From assembly GCA_000996895.1 (NCBI GenBank), contig LCBB01000003.1, positions 3,659 through 67,658 of the forward strand: a stretch of DNA of 64,000 nucleotides. Direction: 5' to 3'. The translations under genes and the position numbers were made by a program. This document shows positions 1 to 4,108 of this stretch, piece after piece. The notes beneath the pieces were generated by a model. The model saw nothing but the letters and a program-made list of their open reading frames with translations, was not told where the DNA came from and searched no databases. The stretch is from a candidate division WWE3 bacterium GW2011_GWC2_41_23 (GTDB lineage Bacteria > Patescibacteriota > WWE3 > UBA101185 > UBA10185). The stretch's first letter is position 1. Every line of letters begins with the position of its first letter.

Positions 1-184
1 TCTTTTCAAACTCATCGAAATTGGCGGCTATTCTGTGGGTTATGAAACCAAAAGTCTCGCCGTTTTTTACCAGTCTGTACGATTGAACGTAGGTGGCTGT
101 TATTGCCTGCTGGAGGGTGTGAAATACCCTAACATCCACGGCTTTTTGAACACCTTGAGCTTTCGGGCTTGGGTCCATATACAT
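1..184 (-). CDS. hypothetical protein, 3' part outside window (N-terminus MYMDPSPKAQGVQKAVDVRVFHTLQQ...)
   Basis: Reverse complement of 176-200 reads AAGGAGAGAA-ATG-TAT-ATG, with the SD AAGGAG at 189-194 (minus strand). The ORF runs off the window start. It is absent from the ORF track, which likely lists only complete ORFs. Confidence 0.4.
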   Translation of the reverse strand, partial: MYMDPSPKAQGVQKAVDVRVFHTLQQAITATYVQSYRLVKNGETFGFITHRIAANFDEFEK

Positions 185-237
185 TTCTCTCCTTTTCTAA
201 GATTTACGGGGATTTTAGCACAATTTAGGGGAAATAC

Positions 238-265
238 TAAATGGAGCCAAAGGTGGGGATCGAAC
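238..265. repeat. 28-bp direct repeat (taaatggagccaaaggtggggatcgaac) identical to the tRNA-Thr 3' end plus 4 nt; att-like distal copy
   Basis: Exact 28-nt match to 2163-2190, which covers the T-loop-to-CCA 3' portion of the minus-strand tRNA-Thr plus 4 flanking nt. Confidence 0.8.
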
Positions 266-276
266 GGGGGTTAGAT

Positions 277-795
277 TTAATCCGGTACTTTCATATTTTC
301 AAATTGCTCGTTTGCCCATTTTATGTGTTCTTCCAAGCTTTGGGAAAGGCCGAAATCAGCCCTGATTTTATTCACATTCTTTGGATTTTGAAGGGGAAGT
401 GGTTCGGATACGCTCTTACCATCCATGTTCTTGTGAATCTGCATAATTTCACCGAAGCGCTGTTTTTTTCCGCTACGTACGAGAGCATTATCAATTAATA
501 TGGCAACTTTTTCTCTGTCAGATGTACATTTTAGTATTTCGTCGGATTCGCAAATGCTTTCGATGAATTTTAGGTCTCTTGAGTGGCAGGATAGTGTTAT
601 GAACCGGTTAACACCCGATTCACCTAATTTACAAACAAAATCTGTCCCGAGAGTGCCGATTAAAAACTTCAGAATGTTTGTGGTAATGGTATCTGTAATT
701 TTGACAGGTAACACACCGTATTTTCCTTGGTATCTGACTTTTTGATCTACTTTAAATAGTATTGAAAGGAAGAAATTAACTATTTTGATTTTCAT
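277..795 (-). CDS. hypothetical protein (172 aa) inside the tRNA-Thr-associated island, downstream of the ATP-grasp gene
   Basis: Complete ORF with ATG start. It follows a terminator-like hairpin after the ATP-grasp gene. No recognisable motifs and a weak SD. Confidence 0.35.
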   Translation of the reverse strand: MKIKIVNFFLSILFKVDQKVRYQGKYGVLPVKITDTITTNILKFLIGTLGTDFVCKLGESGVNRFITLSCHSRDLKFIESICESDEILKCTSDREKVAILIDNALVRSGKKQRFGEIMQIHKNMDGKSVSEPLPLQNPKNVNKIRADFGLSQSLEEHIKWANEQFENMKVPD

Positions 796-817
796 ATAAG
801 TTTATTTAAAAAAGGCC

Positions 818-850
818 TGCAGGTGGTGCAAATTTCATGCATTGTGCAGG
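818..850 (-). terminator. rho-independent terminator-like hairpin after the ATP-grasp gene
   Basis: ggcctgcag...ctgcaggcc 8-9 bp stem, followed on the minus strand by TTTTTTT (ggcctttttttaaat). Confidence 0.5.
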
Positions 851-858
851 CCTTGCTG

Positions 859-1788
859 TTAATTCAGAAGCTTAGCAATCTCTTGGGCTATAGGGTGTCT
901 GCCTCCATTTTGAACAAAAATCCACGAACCTGTCGGATTGTTCTCTAGGAAGTAGTATATACCGTCTGTGCCTAAGATAAAATCCATTGCGCTAAACTTC
1001 AACCCGAAGTTTCGGACAAATGCGACACACCTGCTTTCTAGTTCTGCTGGAAGTTCTATGCGGCTATAGATTAGTTCGCCTTTTCTCCCATCTCTATAGT
1101 CCACGTCGTTTGTTTTCCGACCGACTTGTGTAATGGAGATGGAAAACACTCTATCGCCAACCACGATTGTTCTAATGTCAAACACCCTTTCTATTTCCTC
1201 CTGAAATATTGCCGGGGAAATAGGTAGCAGGCTGAAATCAACGGGGTCCTCCAGACCTATCCTGTTGGTAAAGATTGCCAAGAGTTTTCCCTCGCTGTTT
1301 ATAAGCATCTGTTTAGCTACGGGTTTAACTACAATTTTACCAACATCTGATCTGAACCTAATTGCCTCTTCGGGGCTGCTGGTTACTAGGGTTCTGGGTA
1401 TGGTCATGCCTAAACACTTGGCGGTTTCAAGCTGTAGCTGTTTGTTATCCGCGCGTTTTATGCGGTAAGGGTTTGACACCCACCGGGCTTTTTCCAGGAG
1501 TCCGTACAACTGGAAAACCATTTCTTCTCTGCACGCCCTGTTAAGCATCTCGTACGATCCGGCTTTTTCTTTTGTGTAAAAAAGGTTGGCGATGCGAAAC
1601 CATACGGAGGTAACGCTGTCAAGATCGAGGTTGTCCAAAGAGTGTCTGAATTTGTTTCCATTCCACTCATAGGACAGTTTTGGGAAGGGTATGTCATCAA
1701 TGTTCAGGCGTACAATTGGTTTGTCAATGTACTTTGTGACTTCCTGGAGCGTACGGTCGTTTGTGAGAGTGATTACTAACAGGCACAC
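859..1788 (-). CDS. ATP-grasp ligase, RimK/MdnC-MvdD-like (candidate graspetide/ribosomal peptide maturase)
   Basis: N-terminal 'CLLVITLTNDRTLQEV...RLNIDDIPFP' and C-terminal 'DVDYRDGRK...ELPAELESRCVAFVRNFGLKFSAMDFIL..DGIYYFLENNPTGSWIF' match the ATP-grasp peptide-ligase pattern (xENNPxGxW). Proposed start is GTG at 1788, preceded by AAGGAG 9 nt upstream. The track's TTG start at 1857 would overlap the upstream terminator hairpin. Confidence 0.7.
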   Translation of the reverse strand: MCLLVITLTNDRTLQEVTKYIDKPIVRLNIDDIPFPKLSYEWNGNKFRHSLDNLDLDSVTSVWFRIANLFYTKEKAGSYEMLNRACREEMVFQLYGLLEKARWVSNPYRIKRADNKQLQLETAKCLGMTIPRTLVTSSPEEAIRFRSDVGKIVVKPVAKQMLINSEGKLLAIFTNRIGLEDPVDFSLLPISPAIFQEEIERVFDIRTIVVGDRVFSISITQVGRKTNDVDYRDGRKGELIYSRIELPAELESRCVAFVRNFGLKFSAMDFILGTDGIYYFLENNPTGSWIFVQNGGRHPIAQEIAKLLN

Positions 1789-1814
1789 GGCATTACTCTC
1801 CTTGTCGGACGTAC

Positions 1815-1855
1815 AAAAAAAGATGGGGAAGGTCTGTGGTGGTAAGCACTTCCCC
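1815..1855 (-). terminator. intrinsic terminator/attenuator between precursor peptide gene and ATP-grasp gene
   Basis: Minus strand: GGGGAAG-(17 nt loop)-CTTCCCC followed by ATCTTTTTTT. It lies between the precursor stop (1869) and the ligase SD (about 1799-1804). Confidence 0.6.
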
Positions 1856-1868
1856 AAGGTAGCGACGC

Positions 1869-1988
1869 TCAGCAGGATTCGTAGTCGGTCTGTGTCCCGC
1901 TGGTATCGGCGTCATAAGTACACTTGCCATCGCATGTGGACTCGTCCGTTCTTTCAAGAACAACAACAAATTGCTCGTAGAAAGACAT
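1869..1988 (-). CDS. candidate graspetide (microviridin-like) RiPP precursor peptide, 39 aa: MSFYEQFVVVLERTDESTCDGKCTYDADTSGTQTDYESC
   Basis: Hand translation of the minus strand. ATG at 1986-1988 with the SD AAGGAGG 6 nt upstream; TGA stop at 1869-1871. The N-terminal aromatic helix-like segment (FYEQFVVV) resembles the PFFARFL-type leader motif. The C-terminal core is rich in Thr/Ser, Asp/Glu and Lys plus 3 Cys. The gene sits immediately upstream of the ATP-grasp ligase on the same strand. Confidence 0.65.
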   Translation of the reverse strand: MSFYEQFVVVLERTDESTCDGKCTYDADTSGTQTDYESC

Positions 1989-2034
1989 TGTAACCTCCTT
2001 TCTTATATATTCGATATGTACCAATTCTGAGTGT

Positions 2035-2062
2035 ATTGTATCCCAAGCTTTTGTCCTGTCAA
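2035..2062 (-). promoter_or_regulatory. sigma70-like promoter for the precursor peptide gene (-35 TTGACA, 16-nt spacer, -10 TACAAT)
   Basis: Minus strand TTGACAggacaaaagcttgggaTACAAT, located about 45 nt upstream of the precursor ATG. Confidence 0.55.
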
Positions 2063-2162
2063 ATGTTGTGGTGGCAAGGTTTTCTCCTAATGAGGTTGCT
2101 GACCTTGGGGGTAGCCTTCGCTGTAGTGGAATCCGCGCACAGGCTTGTGTAATTTGAGTTTT

Positions 2163-2190
2163 TAAATGGAGCCAAAGGTGGGGATCGAAC
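2163..2190. repeat. proximal copy of the 28-bp direct repeat (within the tRNA-Thr 3' end)
   Basis: Identical to 238-265. Confidence 0.8.
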
Positions 2191-2241
2191 CCACAACCTG
2201 CTGTTTACAAAACAGCTGCTCTACCATTGAGCTACTTTGGC
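2167..2241 (-). tRNA. tRNA-Thr (anticodon UGU), CCA encoded
   Basis: Reverse complement is GCCAAAGTAGCTCAATGGTAGAGCAGCTGTTTTGTAAACAGCAGGTTGTGGGTTCGATCCCCACCTTTGGCTCCA. It has a 7-bp acceptor stem, a GCTC/GAGC D-stem, a GCTGT/ACAGC anticodon stem with loop TTTGTAA, and a GTGGG/CCCAC T-stem with TTCGATC loop. Confidence 0.9.
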
Positions 2242-2366
2242 GAGTGTAACGAGCCAATGAGCGATGAAGTCGCACCTTTGGCGAGGCGAAGCGGGCCAAA
2301 GACTAATGACTTTGGCGAGTGTAACGAGCCAATGAGCGATGAAGTCGCACCTTTGGCGAGGCGAGG
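2235..2366. repeat. tandem duplication (2 x 55 bp, 76-bp period) of the tRNA-Thr 5' leader plus first 7-8 nt; upstream copy carries a minimal acceptor-stem hairpin
   Basis: ctttggcgagtgtaacgagccaatgagcgatgaagtcgcacctttggcgaggcga occurs at 2235-2289 and 2311-2365. On the minus strand the upstream unit ends GCCAAAG-tcattagt-CTTTGGC. Confidence 0.75.
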
Positions 2367-2524
2367 ATAGCATAAACCAATAGATTTTAGCACGAAATTT
2401 TTTGCAATAGAAAGAGTTGTTGTCCGCGTATGCGGAGCGATCCTGTTTACGTAATCTTTATATTTGTTGTAGAATCGGGTAAATACTTTTTTCTATTCAT
2501 GTAAGTCCAAAAGGAGAGCGCTAA

Positions 2525-2743
2525 ATGAATACGAAAGATGGTGACCCACTTAGGAAGAGTGCTGTTAATTATAATACCGGTGTTTCTAATACCGGTAATA
2601 ATTGGGGCGTTTCTACACCGATGCTATGGCATGAATCTTCAAGCATCAGCATTGCGGTCGACCACTGCTTGGGTTGTCAATGCCTGGATTCAGCCTGTCT
2701 TCACTGCCGCCACAAGCAGAACAGAAACCATAACGGACACTGA
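2525..2743 (+). CDS. small Cys-rich protein (72 aa; C-terminal HCLGCQCLDSACLHCRH), unknown function
   Basis: SD AAGGAG 6 nt upstream of the ATG. A strong hairpin plus T-run terminator follows at 2803-2856. An overlapping alternative frame (2538..2765) encodes a hydrophobic 75-aa peptide, so frame assignment is uncertain. Confidence 0.4.
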   Translation: MNTKDGDPLRKSAVNYNTGVSNTGNNWGVSTPMLWHESSSISIAVDHCLGCQCLDSACLHCRHKQNRNHNGH

Positions 2744-2802
2744 CCTTAATCAGAAAAGGAGCTAACCATTCAGGTACCTGAAAAGTATTTGCCTTATTAA
2801 AG

Positions 2803-2856
2803 CCGGAGGAACTGTGAAAATTTTTTATAAATTCACAACCTCCGGCGTAGTTTTTC
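2803..2856 (+). terminator. rho-independent terminator
   Basis: ccggaggaactgtgaa...ttcacaacctccgg stem (about 14 bp) followed by cgtagTTTTTcc. Confidence 0.6.
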
Positions 2857-2924
2857 CGTCAAAAAACCCTATATTTCTCAATCGTTGACACAGCAACGGC
2901 ATGTATGGTTTAATTCACTACGTT

Positions 2925-3173
2925 ATGTCAAGAATATGCGACTTTTGCGGTAAAACTTATCAGCAAGGAAACTTGGTCCCGAGAGGGGTCGGTAACCGTG
3001 TTACCAGAAGAACCACTAACAAGAGAAAAGCTAATTTAAGAAGTAAAAGGCTTGAGATTAACGGCCGAATGGTCAGAGTCACTATCTGTGCCTCCTGTCT
3101 GAAAAGACTTAAAAAAGACATTAAAGAGGCAAATTTGGCTTTAGTACAGGCGCAAGCACAGGTAGCCGCCTAA
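2925..3173 (+). CDS. rpmB: 50S ribosomal protein L28
   Basis: MSRICDFCGK...GN...NLRSKRLEINGRMVRVTICASCLK matches the L28 family pattern including the paired Cys motifs. Start taken at the internal Met of track ORF 2901..3173. Confidence 0.8.
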   Translation: MSRICDFCGKTYQQGNLVPRGVGNRVTRRTTNKRKANLRSKRLEINGRMVRVTICASCLKRLKKDIKEANLALVQAQAQVAA

Positions 3174-4108
3174 ACGAGATATCCGTTTTCAAACTCTTTC
3201 CACGACATCATTTTTTTCCCTTCAATTTGTAAATTATCAATCGAAATTTTATCTTTTTCCGGATGCGCGGAGTATATTTTGACCGCAAGCCCGCCGTCTA
3301 CGTGATCCCTGAACTTAATTTTTCCCTGTGAAAGACACCCGGCTTCCTGAATATCTTTCAGGTAAGTCCACGCAATAGGCCAGGGGTTAAACGCCCTAAT
3401 TTTTTGGTCGATGTTTTTTGTATCATTTTTCCAGTTAATAAGCCCGTCCTCTTTAAAAACGAAGGTATTGTGAGGATGAGTTCTGGAGAAGGTGTAAGTA
3501 GCGTTGTCTTCATCCTGGGGCATGGGCTTAATACTTCCTGAGCAGTACCCAAGAATAACATCAGGAAGTTTGTCGGCGGCAACGTGGAACAAAGTTTCGT
3601 AAAGTTCTCCCGACGTTTCGGTTTGGTTCATCTTATAACCTATCTGGCTAAGGATATCACCCGCATCCATACGTTTGCTAATAAGTTGATATGTAATTCC
3701 TGTTGTTTCGTCCCCGTTTAATATCGCGAATTGTACAGGGCTTGCTCCCCGGTATTTGGGTAGAAGAGAGAAGTGTATATTAGTCAATTTTCCGTCAAAA
3801 AATTTAATGATGTCTTCCGGAATCATGTAGCTGAAATCCGCGACTACTCCGTAGTCGGGCTTGTATTTGTGAAGGTCTTCTATCACCATTCGCAGGTCAT
3901 AATCTTTCAAGGACCTTATTTCCACATACCTGACACCCTGTTCCCGCGCCCACTTTTTAACCGCGGTTTCTCTTGTTTCGTGGTTTCTCCCCACTTTGGT
4001 ATCGCTTTTAGTAACACACAAAACCAGGCTAAACTCTTTGTGAAGACTCTCAAGTATGGGGAGCGACCTGTCCGAAGTTCCGAAAAACGCGACTTTTAAT
4101 TTTTTCAC
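3170..4108 (-). CDS. fmt: methionyl-tRNA formyltransferase
   Basis: KVAFFGTS..., SLLPKYRGASPVQFAILNGDETTGITY motifs. Overlaps the def stop, as in a def-fmt operon. Confidence 0.9.
   Translation of the reverse strand: MKKLKVAFFGTSDRSLPILESLHKEFSLVLCVTKSDTKVGRNHETRETAVKKWAREQGVRYVEIRSLKDYDLRMVIEDLHKYKPDYGVVADFSYMIPEDIIKFFDGKLTNIHFSLLPKYRGASPVQFAILNGDETTGITYQLISKRMDAGDILSQIGYKMNQTETSGELYETLFHVAADKLPDVILGYCSGSIKPMPQDEDNATYTFSRTHPHNTFVFKEDGLINWKNDTKNIDQKIRAFNPWPIAWTYLKDIQEAGCLSQGKIKFRDHVDGGLAVKIYSAHPEKDKISIDNLQIEGKKMMSWKEFENGYLV

Follow-up and report, generated by a model that had tools for sequence, protein, structure and literature searches.

The window analyzed here, a stretch of 64,000 nucleotides (nt) from the candidate division WWE3 bacterium GW2011_GWC2_41_23 (contig LCBB01000003.1, positions 3,659 to 67,658), carries a locus that is very probably a minimal three-gene cassette for a graspetide, i.e., a ribosomally made, post-translationally modified peptide (RiPP) modified by an ATP-grasp enzyme. 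The cassette consists of a 39-amino-acid (aa) precursor, a macrocyclase, and a protein of the DUF6624 family. The genes, their homology, their conservation and linkage, and the purifying selection on the 39-aa peptide are established by computation, and the reading proposed in a first-pass annotation, made from the sequence alone, is supported with the corrections given below. The kind of system, its occurrence in candidate phyla radiation (CPR) bacteria, and the orthogroup of the ligase have already been published (Makarova et al. 2022, Biol Direct 17:7, PMC8939145), so the locus is not a new kind of system; nor is a RiPP cluster in a reduced genome as unusual as first supposed, since the CPR graspetide loci published in 2022 include WWE3 loci with 309-aa ligases. 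The 39-aa precursor family, as far as could be checked, is unpublished. The elements that carry this reading are the following.

1869-1988, minus strand: graspetide precursor gene, 39 aa, coordinates including the stop codon (direct translation, family alignment, profile matches)
1994-2000, minus strand: Shine-Dalgarno (SD) sequence AAGGAGG, 5 nt ahead of the precursor ATG (read from the sequence)
859-1788, minus strand: graspetide synthetase (ATP-grasp macrocyclase), 309 aa, GTG start (NCBIfam, PDB, Foldseek)
1798-1803, minus strand: SD sequence AAGGAG, 9 nt ahead of the ligase GTG (read from the sequence)
277-795, minus strand: DUF6624 (PF20329) protein, 172 aa (profile search)

The ligase, which includes the strings LLVITL, RLNIDD, and FLENNPTGSWIF and is one residue shorter than the 310 aa first counted, matches the NCBIfam models of RiPP maturases over its full length (TIGR04187 1.1e-53, MvdC 5.9e-49, MvdD 2.1e-44, grasp-with-spasm 4.5e-23), while the non-maturase models reach 1.1e-10 (RimK, TIGR00768) and 2e-3 (glutathione synthase). 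A sequence search of the PDB returns MdnB as the best match (6.8e-34 over residues 9-308), followed by AMdnB, CdnC, MdnC, PruB, and PsnB. Moreover, when an AlphaFold2 model built on an alignment of 21 clade members (predicted local distance difference test, pLDDT, 89) is compared with solved structures by Foldseek, ranks 1-32 are all occupied by graspetide macrocyclases (E 1e-26 to 1e-18, template modeling score, TM, ~0.8), and RimK, LysX, and ArgX follow from rank 33 on. K155 (in VVKP), R206, E282, and N284 (the E-x-N of FLENNP) are invariant in the 21 clade members and D269 is near-invariant; from general knowledge of ATP-grasp enzymes, we take these five residues to be those that bind the nucleotide and Mg. 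By homology and predicted fold, the ligase is thus a graspetide macrocyclase and not a RimK or GshB enzyme, and it groups with RiPP maturases where the first-pass annotation had allowed for a grouping with RimK or glutathione synthetases. Its closest relatives are metagenome proteins, and scans place homologues in WWE3 (95% identity, L001 and L050-54 in our numbering of loci), Saccharibacteria, Woesebacteria, and other CPR bins; no paper in the literature searched pairs graspetides with Saccharibacteria.

The precursor and ligase open reading frames (ORFs) lie on the same minus strand, with 80 nt between the stop codon of the former and the GTG at 1788. As the first-pass annotation had read it, the minus strand at 1869-1988 translates to MSFYEQFVVVLERTDESTCDGKCTYDADTSGTQTDYESC, followed by TGA. 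The predicted leader is MSFYEQFVVVLE(R) and the core spans approximately T14-C39, in which the kept residues are the putative donors T18, T24, and T34, the putative acceptors D26, D35, and E37, and the pair C19-x-G-x-C23. A longer ORF of 51 aa could begin at a TTG, but the 39-aa start is preferred because AAGGAGG is placed before its ATG; the orthologues in L003, L055, P0167, and P0170 (the last two being protein entries) begin at the equivalent Met.

A homologous small ORF is found directly upstream of every full-length ligase orthologue for which upstream sequence is available, the full-length loci inspected being ten distinct ones (the window, the L001 type, L002, L003, L004, L005, L006, L055, L061, and the L058 type) plus L131. 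The peptide-ligase pair is carried by genomes of WWE3, Saccharibacteria, and Woesebacteria and by several metagenome contigs without an assignment. The family, exemplified by MTSFYAQFSVVLEKVDENSCNGGCTHDVNQGGDITDYEST (L002), MSFYEQFAVILANVDEASCDGRCTYDANSSGDVTDHESC (L003), and ...SFFTQFATELTNVNEGTCNGDCTYDSDNKGSLTDHEST (L005), combines a leader SF[YF]xQF with a core [ST]C.G.CT.D…TD.ES: F3, Q6, F7, T24, D26, T34, and D35 are invariant, position 18 is Ser or Thr in every member, C19, G21, C23, E37, and S38 are near-invariant, and a C-terminal Cys is frequent. A divergent type without the Cys pair, ...PFFKQFASPITGYAESSLDPTWDSNAYGQLTDYGTC, occurs in L058/59/62. A profile built from five members finds matches (E 1e-16 to 1e-26) upstream of an orthologous ligase in eight further distinct loci and no second match across the window; since these homologues occupy the equivalent upstream position, the 39-aa ORF is beyond chance. 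The first-pass annotation had made its proposal depend on the conservation and co-occurrence of the ORF in relatives, and the ORF proves to be conserved with the ligase across CPR phyla.

At the codon level, comparison of the window with L002, L003, and L055 gives a proportion of synonymous differences (pS) of 0.67-1.0, i.e., saturated, versus a proportion of nonsynonymous differences (pN) of 0.17-0.29, and between the window and L001 the peptide gene carries three synonymous changes and one conservative change. By these substitution patterns, purifying selection on the 39-aa peptide is strong. When 1.84 billion representative proteins are searched exhaustively, eight real family clusters come up together with one spurious match, P0169, a 380-aa repeat protein that was rejected as a family member because only its leader-like SFYEAFVV string agrees. 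Specifically, P0170 lies on a 252-kb scaffold, where a 308-aa ligase (56% identical) comes next and then a 171-aa PF20329 protein. P0166 (70 aa) agrees with the window peptide at all 39 residues, after which Arg takes the place of the stop codon and 31 more residues run through the hairpin region; the entry reflects a genuine stop-loss allele or else an error of sequencing or assembly.

Searches of the 39-aa peptide against NCBIfam and Pfam return nothing meaningful (DUF6296 at 0.049 is noise), and neither a signal peptide nor a double-glycine motif is present in the family. The family alignment contains no conserved Lys, so lactams are not expected and the Lys-Asp/Glu omega-amides included in the first-pass annotation have no basis. 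The leader SF[YF]xQF fits the pattern hhxxh, with Ser in place of Pro in all members but the L058 type (PFFKQF). The window peptide also fits the Branch 1 signature TxxxTx(6-10)Dx(1-4)D of Makarova et al. (T14, T18, D26, D28), a fit judged coincidental because other family members do not share it.

The third gene, suggested by the first-pass annotation as a possible accessory factor, codes for a DUF6624 protein and co-occurs with the ligase. Alone, the 172-aa ORF matches PF20329 at 9e-5 (22.5 bits, below the 27-bit gathering score), and a single-sequence search finds two close copies only. A profile of eleven cassette homologues, taken from the locus translations, reaches 542 proteins; among the 120 listed, all but two near-identical WWE3 copies carry PF20329, and many of the PF20329 proteins among the listed matches are from CPR bacteria. 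The L131 orthologue is itself annotated as PF20329. Where the locus is long enough, the DUF6624 gene lies downstream of the ligase in WWE3, L002, L005, L006, L058/59/62, L067, L104, and L131. On this sequence evidence, the 172-aa ORF is a DUF6624 protein and a conserved third member of the cassette. Its AlphaFold2 model (pLDDT 93) is a helical bundle with one beta hairpin, and no fold among the solved structures searched resembles it; H71, D102, G115, and R145 are invariant in 100 sequences. The protein may be a partner protein, a tailoring enzyme, or an immunity factor, and the family has been reported as enriched in graspetide biosynthetic gene clusters (as ‘cluster 23’ in PMC8939145, an equation made by the present analysis; PMC13097080).

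The regulatory elements of the cassette comprise a putative promoter and two hairpins.

2035-2062, minus strand: sigma-70-like promoter TTGACA-16-TACAAT (11/12 positions match)
1815-1856, minus strand: hairpin (8 bp, 17-nt loop; 1856-1824) and T7 (1821-1815) between precursor and ligase (direct folding)
808-854, minus strand: strong terminator-like hairpin (10-bp stem) and T6 after the ligase gene (dG -20.7 kcal/mol, z -3.9)

The near-consensus promoter and the strong SD sequence noted by the first-pass annotation are both present, as are the stem-loop, the T7 run, and the SD/GTG ligase start in and after the 80-nt spacer. TTGACA-16-TACAAT is the top promoter-like site in window positions 200-2500, and its -35 and -10 hexamers are identical in L001, with an overall identity of 73% across the 172 nt upstream of the start codon; the site presumably functions as a promoter in this CPR bacterium. 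Both hairpins were evaluated by direct folding against 200 shuffles, as a consensus terminator scan missed them because their loops exceed 8 nt. The intergenic hairpin folds with a dG of -13 kcal/mol. A hairpin between precursor and ligase is found in 10/10 orthologous loci, in most of them with a T-run, and these hairpins are GC-rich and mutually unrelated in sequence; a position kept without sequence conservation supports a functional, probably leaky, terminator. The intergenic hairpin is therefore probably a weak and leaky intrinsic terminator. Thus, of the terminator/attenuator initially proposed, the hairpin holds throughout the orthologous loci and attenuation is unproven: no alternative anti-terminator pairing is conserved among the 10 loci, which gives no support for a classical attenuator. 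No shuffle (0/200) folds as well as the hairpin at 808-854. This second hairpin stands between the ligase and DUF6624 genes, and the DUF6624 gene has no obvious SD sequence in the window; in other loci and phyla, the DUF6624 gene abuts or overlaps the ligase gene. An Rfam scan of window positions 1-3200 finds tRNA only, with no riboswitch or leader RNA.

For MdnB/MdnC, PsnB, and CdnC, leader binding and the formation of side-chain esters through acyl-phosphate intermediates are established, and by analogy with these enzymes the cassette may work as follows. The sigma-70-like promoter would drive the precursor gene, and the weak hairpin and T7 run would let only part of the transcription pass into the ligase, yielding more precursor mRNA than enzyme mRNA, with a stronger terminator after the ligase gene. 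The short hydrophobic leader SF[YF]xQF (hhxxh, compare PFFARFL in microviridins or the ‘Phhx(1,2)h’ of PMC8939145) would dock on the ligase, which would use ATP to turn carboxylates of core side chains into acyl phosphates and join them to Thr/Ser hydroxyls in omega-ester (macrolactone) bonds. With [S/T]18, T24, and T34 as donors and D26, D35, and E37 as acceptors, up to three rings would be possible, and the pair C19-x-G-x-C23 may add a disulfide. Removal of the leader, export, and a bioactivity of the product would presumably complete the pathway.

The cassette is delimited by copies of tRNA sequence.

2167-2241, minus strand: tRNA-Thr(TGT), upstream cassette boundary (ARAGORN; Rfam, 75 bits)
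238-265, minus strand: 28-nt perfect copy of the tRNA-Thr 3' end (identical to 2163-2190), downstream boundary (repeat search, 100% identical)

These two elements bracket the 1.9-kb cassette in an att-like arrangement. In L001 and L054, the distal copy measures 73 nt with 98.6% identity and escapes tRNA calling, and in the complete WWE3 genome RAAC2_WWE3_1 it is a full tRNA-Thr. No integrase ORF, which a tRNA-targeted integrative island would be expected to carry besides the repeat, lies inside the 1.9-kb cassette, and the base composition of the cassette, examined for traces of horizontal transfer, does not stand out from that of the flanking DNA. RAAC2_WWE3_1 has lost the precursor gene together with three quarters of the ligase gene: at 3962-4936 of L033 (CP006914, RAAC2_WWE3_1), and also in L113 and L114, what is left of the ligase gene, its last ~48 codons, is joined directly to a 39-nt piece of tRNA-Thr, and the downstream part is intact, with the DUF6624 gene (91% identical), the full tRNA-Thr, and two genes of a family named cluster342. 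Moreover, the ligase is 5'-truncated in L007/L063/L064 (WWE3 GW2011_GWC2_44_9) and L057, starting from residue ~99 or ~46, and the DUF6624 gene persists in L007/L063/L064 despite the truncated ligase; these truncations suggest that the cassette has decayed repeatedly. Where the ligase is 5'-truncated (L007/63/64, L057, L033/113/114), there is no peptide gene.

Several points weigh against the interpretation of the locus as a graspetide cassette. The ligase falls below the curated cut-off of every named maturase family (e.g., 182.4 versus 350 bits for TIGR04187), and its Pfam matches are sub-threshold, below the gathering scores. The leader is very short, ~12 residues, and usually begins with Ser in place of the Pro of other leaders. 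The conserved donors (18, 24, 34) and acceptors (26, 35, 37) are interleaved (T-x-D ... T-D-x-E) and not arranged as a donor-rich followed by an acceptor-rich segment. In characterized graspetides each donor is N-terminal to its own acceptor (bioRxiv 10.1101/2023.06.21.545981), a rule by which the partner of D26 must be [S/T]18 or T24; pairings that obey it are available, e.g., 18 to 26, 24 to 35, and 34 to 37 as candidates, and with interleaved residues the connectivity is not predictable from it. The intergenic hairpin beats shuffled sequences only modestly (z -2.3; 6/200 shuffles fold as well), and the 96-nt spacer overall does no better than shuffles (z -0.12). No protease or exporter is found within the cassette or among the immediate neighbors bL28, fmt, def, and topA. 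Lastly, Makarova et al. named other proteins, the tandem ~100-aa paralogues of cluster342, as the precursors of the WWE3 loci (PMC8939145). One such gene lies at the edge of the window.

1-178, minus strand: start of a ‘cluster342’ gene (MDPSPKAQGVQKAVDVRVFH...), running off the window edge (phmmer versus KKT26267.1, the reference sequence from the PMC8939145 supplement, 2.1e-35)

If the ~100-aa cluster342 proteins were the substrates of the ligase, the 39-aa ORF would not be the precursor. This assignment was published for ten WWE3 genomes with 309-aa ligases, and the cluster342 gene of the window lies within ~700 bp of the cassette. It is nonetheless improbable here, because cluster342 homologues are found in WWE3 loci only and are absent from L131 and from L002, L059, and L062, in which 1.9-3.4 kb extend beyond the DUF6624 gene, whereas the 39-aa family tracks the ligase across phyla. 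Furthermore, cluster342 lies outside the tRNA bracket, beyond the 28-nt copy in the window, the 73-nt copy in L001 and L054, and the complete tRNA-Thr gene in RAAC2_WWE3_1, a genome that keeps its cluster342 genes intact though the ligase is cut to its last ~48 codons; in addition, a Pfam search assigns the cluster342 proteins to no family. On this comparative evidence, we favor the 39-aa ORF as the better precursor candidate and argue against the published assignment. According to the same publication, gene callers may have overlooked small ORFs that are the precursors in other Branch 2 loci; six motifs of the 39-aa family are absent from the portion of its supplement text covered by the search.

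Three further explanations keep the 39-aa ORF apart from the proposed chemistry. The ORF could be a regulatory upstream ORF whose translation controls the terminator by classical attenuation, as the succession of a short ORF, a hairpin with a T-run, and an enzyme gene resembles an attenuator and the minimum free energy fold pairs the T-run with the SD region of the ligase; this is very unlikely, given that selection acts on the whole amino-acid sequence, especially Thr, Asp, and Cys near the C-terminus, with synonymous sites saturated, that the hairpins share neither sequence nor a conserved anti-terminator pairing, that the stop codon lies 12 nt ahead of the hairpin without overlap, and that a strong SD sequence and a promoter of its own suit a product made in large amounts. 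The conserved C-x-G-x-C, the frequent C-terminal Cys, and the lack of a leader protease or exporter in the cassette would also suit an unmodified or disulfide-only bacteriocin-like peptide, with the ligase or DUF6624 employed otherwise, e.g., in immunity. However, members of the L058 type have lost the Cys pair and kept T24, D26, T34, and D35 without change, neither a signal peptide nor a double-glycine motif is present in the peptide, and a strictly kept place beside a macrocyclase homologue is what marks a peptide as substrate, which leaves this explanation with scarcely any probability. As for the enzyme, a RimK/LysX-type or other housekeeping ligase (S6 glutamylation, amino-acid carrier chemistry) standing by chance next to a small ORF could account for the weak RimK matches (TIGR00768 1.1e-10; Pfam RimK 0.0074, below the gathering score) and for the label ‘glutathione synthase/RimK-type ligase-like’ that one source gives to a ligase fragment. 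The RimK-family scores are themselves under the cut-offs (TIGR00768 41.3 versus 143.4 bits; PF08443 16.4 versus 21 bits), the maturase models, whose matches take in the N-terminal pre-ATP-grasp domain, outscore RimK by more than 40 orders of magnitude, and 32 macrocyclase chains precede RimK in the structural ranking; moreover, the ligase is strictly linked to the small peptide gene and, unlike a housekeeping enzyme, is dispensable and decaying in close relatives (RAAC2_WWE3_1, L007, L057). A RimK or glutathione-synthetase identity is effectively refuted by the profile scores and the structural ranking, and the chance of a housekeeping enzyme is close to nil.

The graspetide cassette therefore remains the preferred reading, and a more ambitious version of it can be formulated. 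In this version, the family SF[YF]xQF / [ST]C.G.CT.D...TD.ES would form a graspetide group not described so far, whose ring topology is new (possibly including a D26-T34 acceptor-before-donor ester and a disulfide), DUF6624 would be its obligatory partner or a new tailoring enzyme, and the cassette, 1.9 kb between its tRNA copies, would travel from one CPR phylum to another and serve on its own as a weapon or signal between episymbiont and host or among CPR bacteria. Taken as a joint claim, this is doubtful; to our knowledge, an acceptor-before-donor ester of the D26-T34 type is found in no characterized graspetide.

Additional observations concern the ligase relatives and the flanking DNA. 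L058, L059, and L062 contain two tandem ATP-grasp genes (492-1469 and 2474-3424), the second of which has the divergent Cys-less peptide in front and DUF6624 behind. Remoter ligase relatives (28-40% identity; L008 and L010-L020, in Chloroflexi and Saccharibacteria metagenome-assembled genomes) are preceded, ~100-300 nt upstream, by unrelated ORFs of 43-93 aa with a PFG[VA][DE]L-type leader and Thr/Ser- and Asp-rich C-terminal tails, and these are typical graspetide precursors of other groups. Directly upstream of tRNA-Thr, and overlapping its first 8 nt, window positions 2234-2383 hold two tandem 75-nt units (85% identical) for which Rfam gives no match; the equivalent site of L001 holds a different short tandem repeat in about three copies (ORF artefact FAKGSSLWLAT x3). 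Beyond it, a small Cys-rich ORF of 72-87 aa (window 2525-2743, plus strand; L001 3014-3277, minus strand; L033 3656-3892, minus strand) is divergent from the tRNA, with a good SD sequence, a hairpin terminator, and the motif ...ALWQ..VD.CLG.C...C..C, and has no match in Pfam. Window positions 2415-2779 (~365 bp) are unalignable as DNA among the three WWE3 genomes, so the Cys-rich gene evolves fast.

Protease inhibitors and macrocyclic scaffolds are looked for among the graspetides, and one survey has singled out the occurrence of these peptides in CPR bacteria as a question that episymbiont biology has yet to answer (PMC8939145). The locus offers a concrete substrate for this question in a very small system: the 39-aa peptide, its 309-aa ligase, and optionally the 172-aa DUF6624 protein. 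For a set of WWE3 loci already in print, it would correct which gene is taken as the precursor. It also suggests where other Branch 2 precursors hide, i.e., in short, directly upstream ORFs missed by gene callers, and provides a compact system for studying DUF6624, a widespread graspetide-associated family.

Among the known systems, the microviridin core is cross-linked via Thr/Ser-Asp/Glu side chains by the MdnB/MdnC mechanism. With that system (MdnA with MdnB/MdnC; PDB 5IG8, 5IG9), the ligase of the window has in common its macrocyclase fold (TM ~0.8) and homology over the full length (E 6.8e-34), and the locus shares a precursor gene placed upstream and, in the predicted leader, an aromatic/hydrophobic motif; conversely, it has one ligase instead of two, no TxKxPSDx(E/D)(E/D) core, no conserved Lys, and neither a GNAT nor an ABC transporter in the cassette. 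Thus, the initial description as ‘microviridin-like’ holds at the level of the enzyme superfamily, while membership of microviridins proper (group 1) was rejected on account of the missing core motif, the single ligase, and scores under the cut-offs (MvdC 167 versus 425 bits, MvdD 152 versus 475 bits). The actinobacterial SAV_5884-type/PruB system (prunipeptin; TIGR04187; PDB 9BOU) provides the best curated family (1.1e-53) and the top structural match (E 3e-26), and differs in host phylum, in the score of the WWE3 ligase (182 versus the 350-bit cut-off), in the PIMT-type methyltransferase that is lacking here, and in the precursor, as the 39-aa peptide matches no NCBIfam model, including the cognate ‘ATP-grasp target RiPP’ model. 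In plesiocin, a single ligase puts several Thr-Glu/Asp omega-esters on a short core. The plesiocin system (PsnA2/PsnB; PDB 7DRM-7DRP) resembles the WWE3 cassette in its single ligase and fold (E ~1e-21), with weaker sequence similarity between PsnB and the ligase (2.7e-13), and its core consists of repeated TTxxxxEE with donors before acceptors, whereas the 39-aa peptide has a single interleaved core with a Cys pair.

The candidate-phyla systems are compared through two surveys. The updated RODEO survey (Carter et al. 2026, PMC13097080), with a data set of 21,584 peptides, found DUF6624 highly enriched in graspetide groups 18, 20, 23, and 42, and groups 27 and 42 rich in candidate phyla, with a DUF6624 co-occurrence of 82% in group 42; the part of the survey material searched contains none of the motifs by which the 39-aa family was looked for. 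Groups 42, 18, 20, and 23 share with the WWE3 cassette a candidate-phyla origin, ligases under the Pfam/TIGRFAM cut-offs, and high DUF6624 co-occurrence, while the representative precursor of group 42, a Komeilibacteria peptide (MKKNSTPKPLILDRL...GFTTHGTPNDPDSGGTD), bears no relation to the SF[YF]xQF...TD[YH]ES family. Lastly, Branch 2 of Makarova et al. (PMC8939145), which described graspetide loci in CPR bacteria and, in this branch, ten WWE3 genomes with 309-aa ATP-grasp proteins and a ‘cluster 23’ family protein in all loci, contains the orthologous ligase group and the same companion, and differs in the precursor, which is cluster342 in that work and, in our preferred reading, the 39-aa ORF directly upstream of the ligase.

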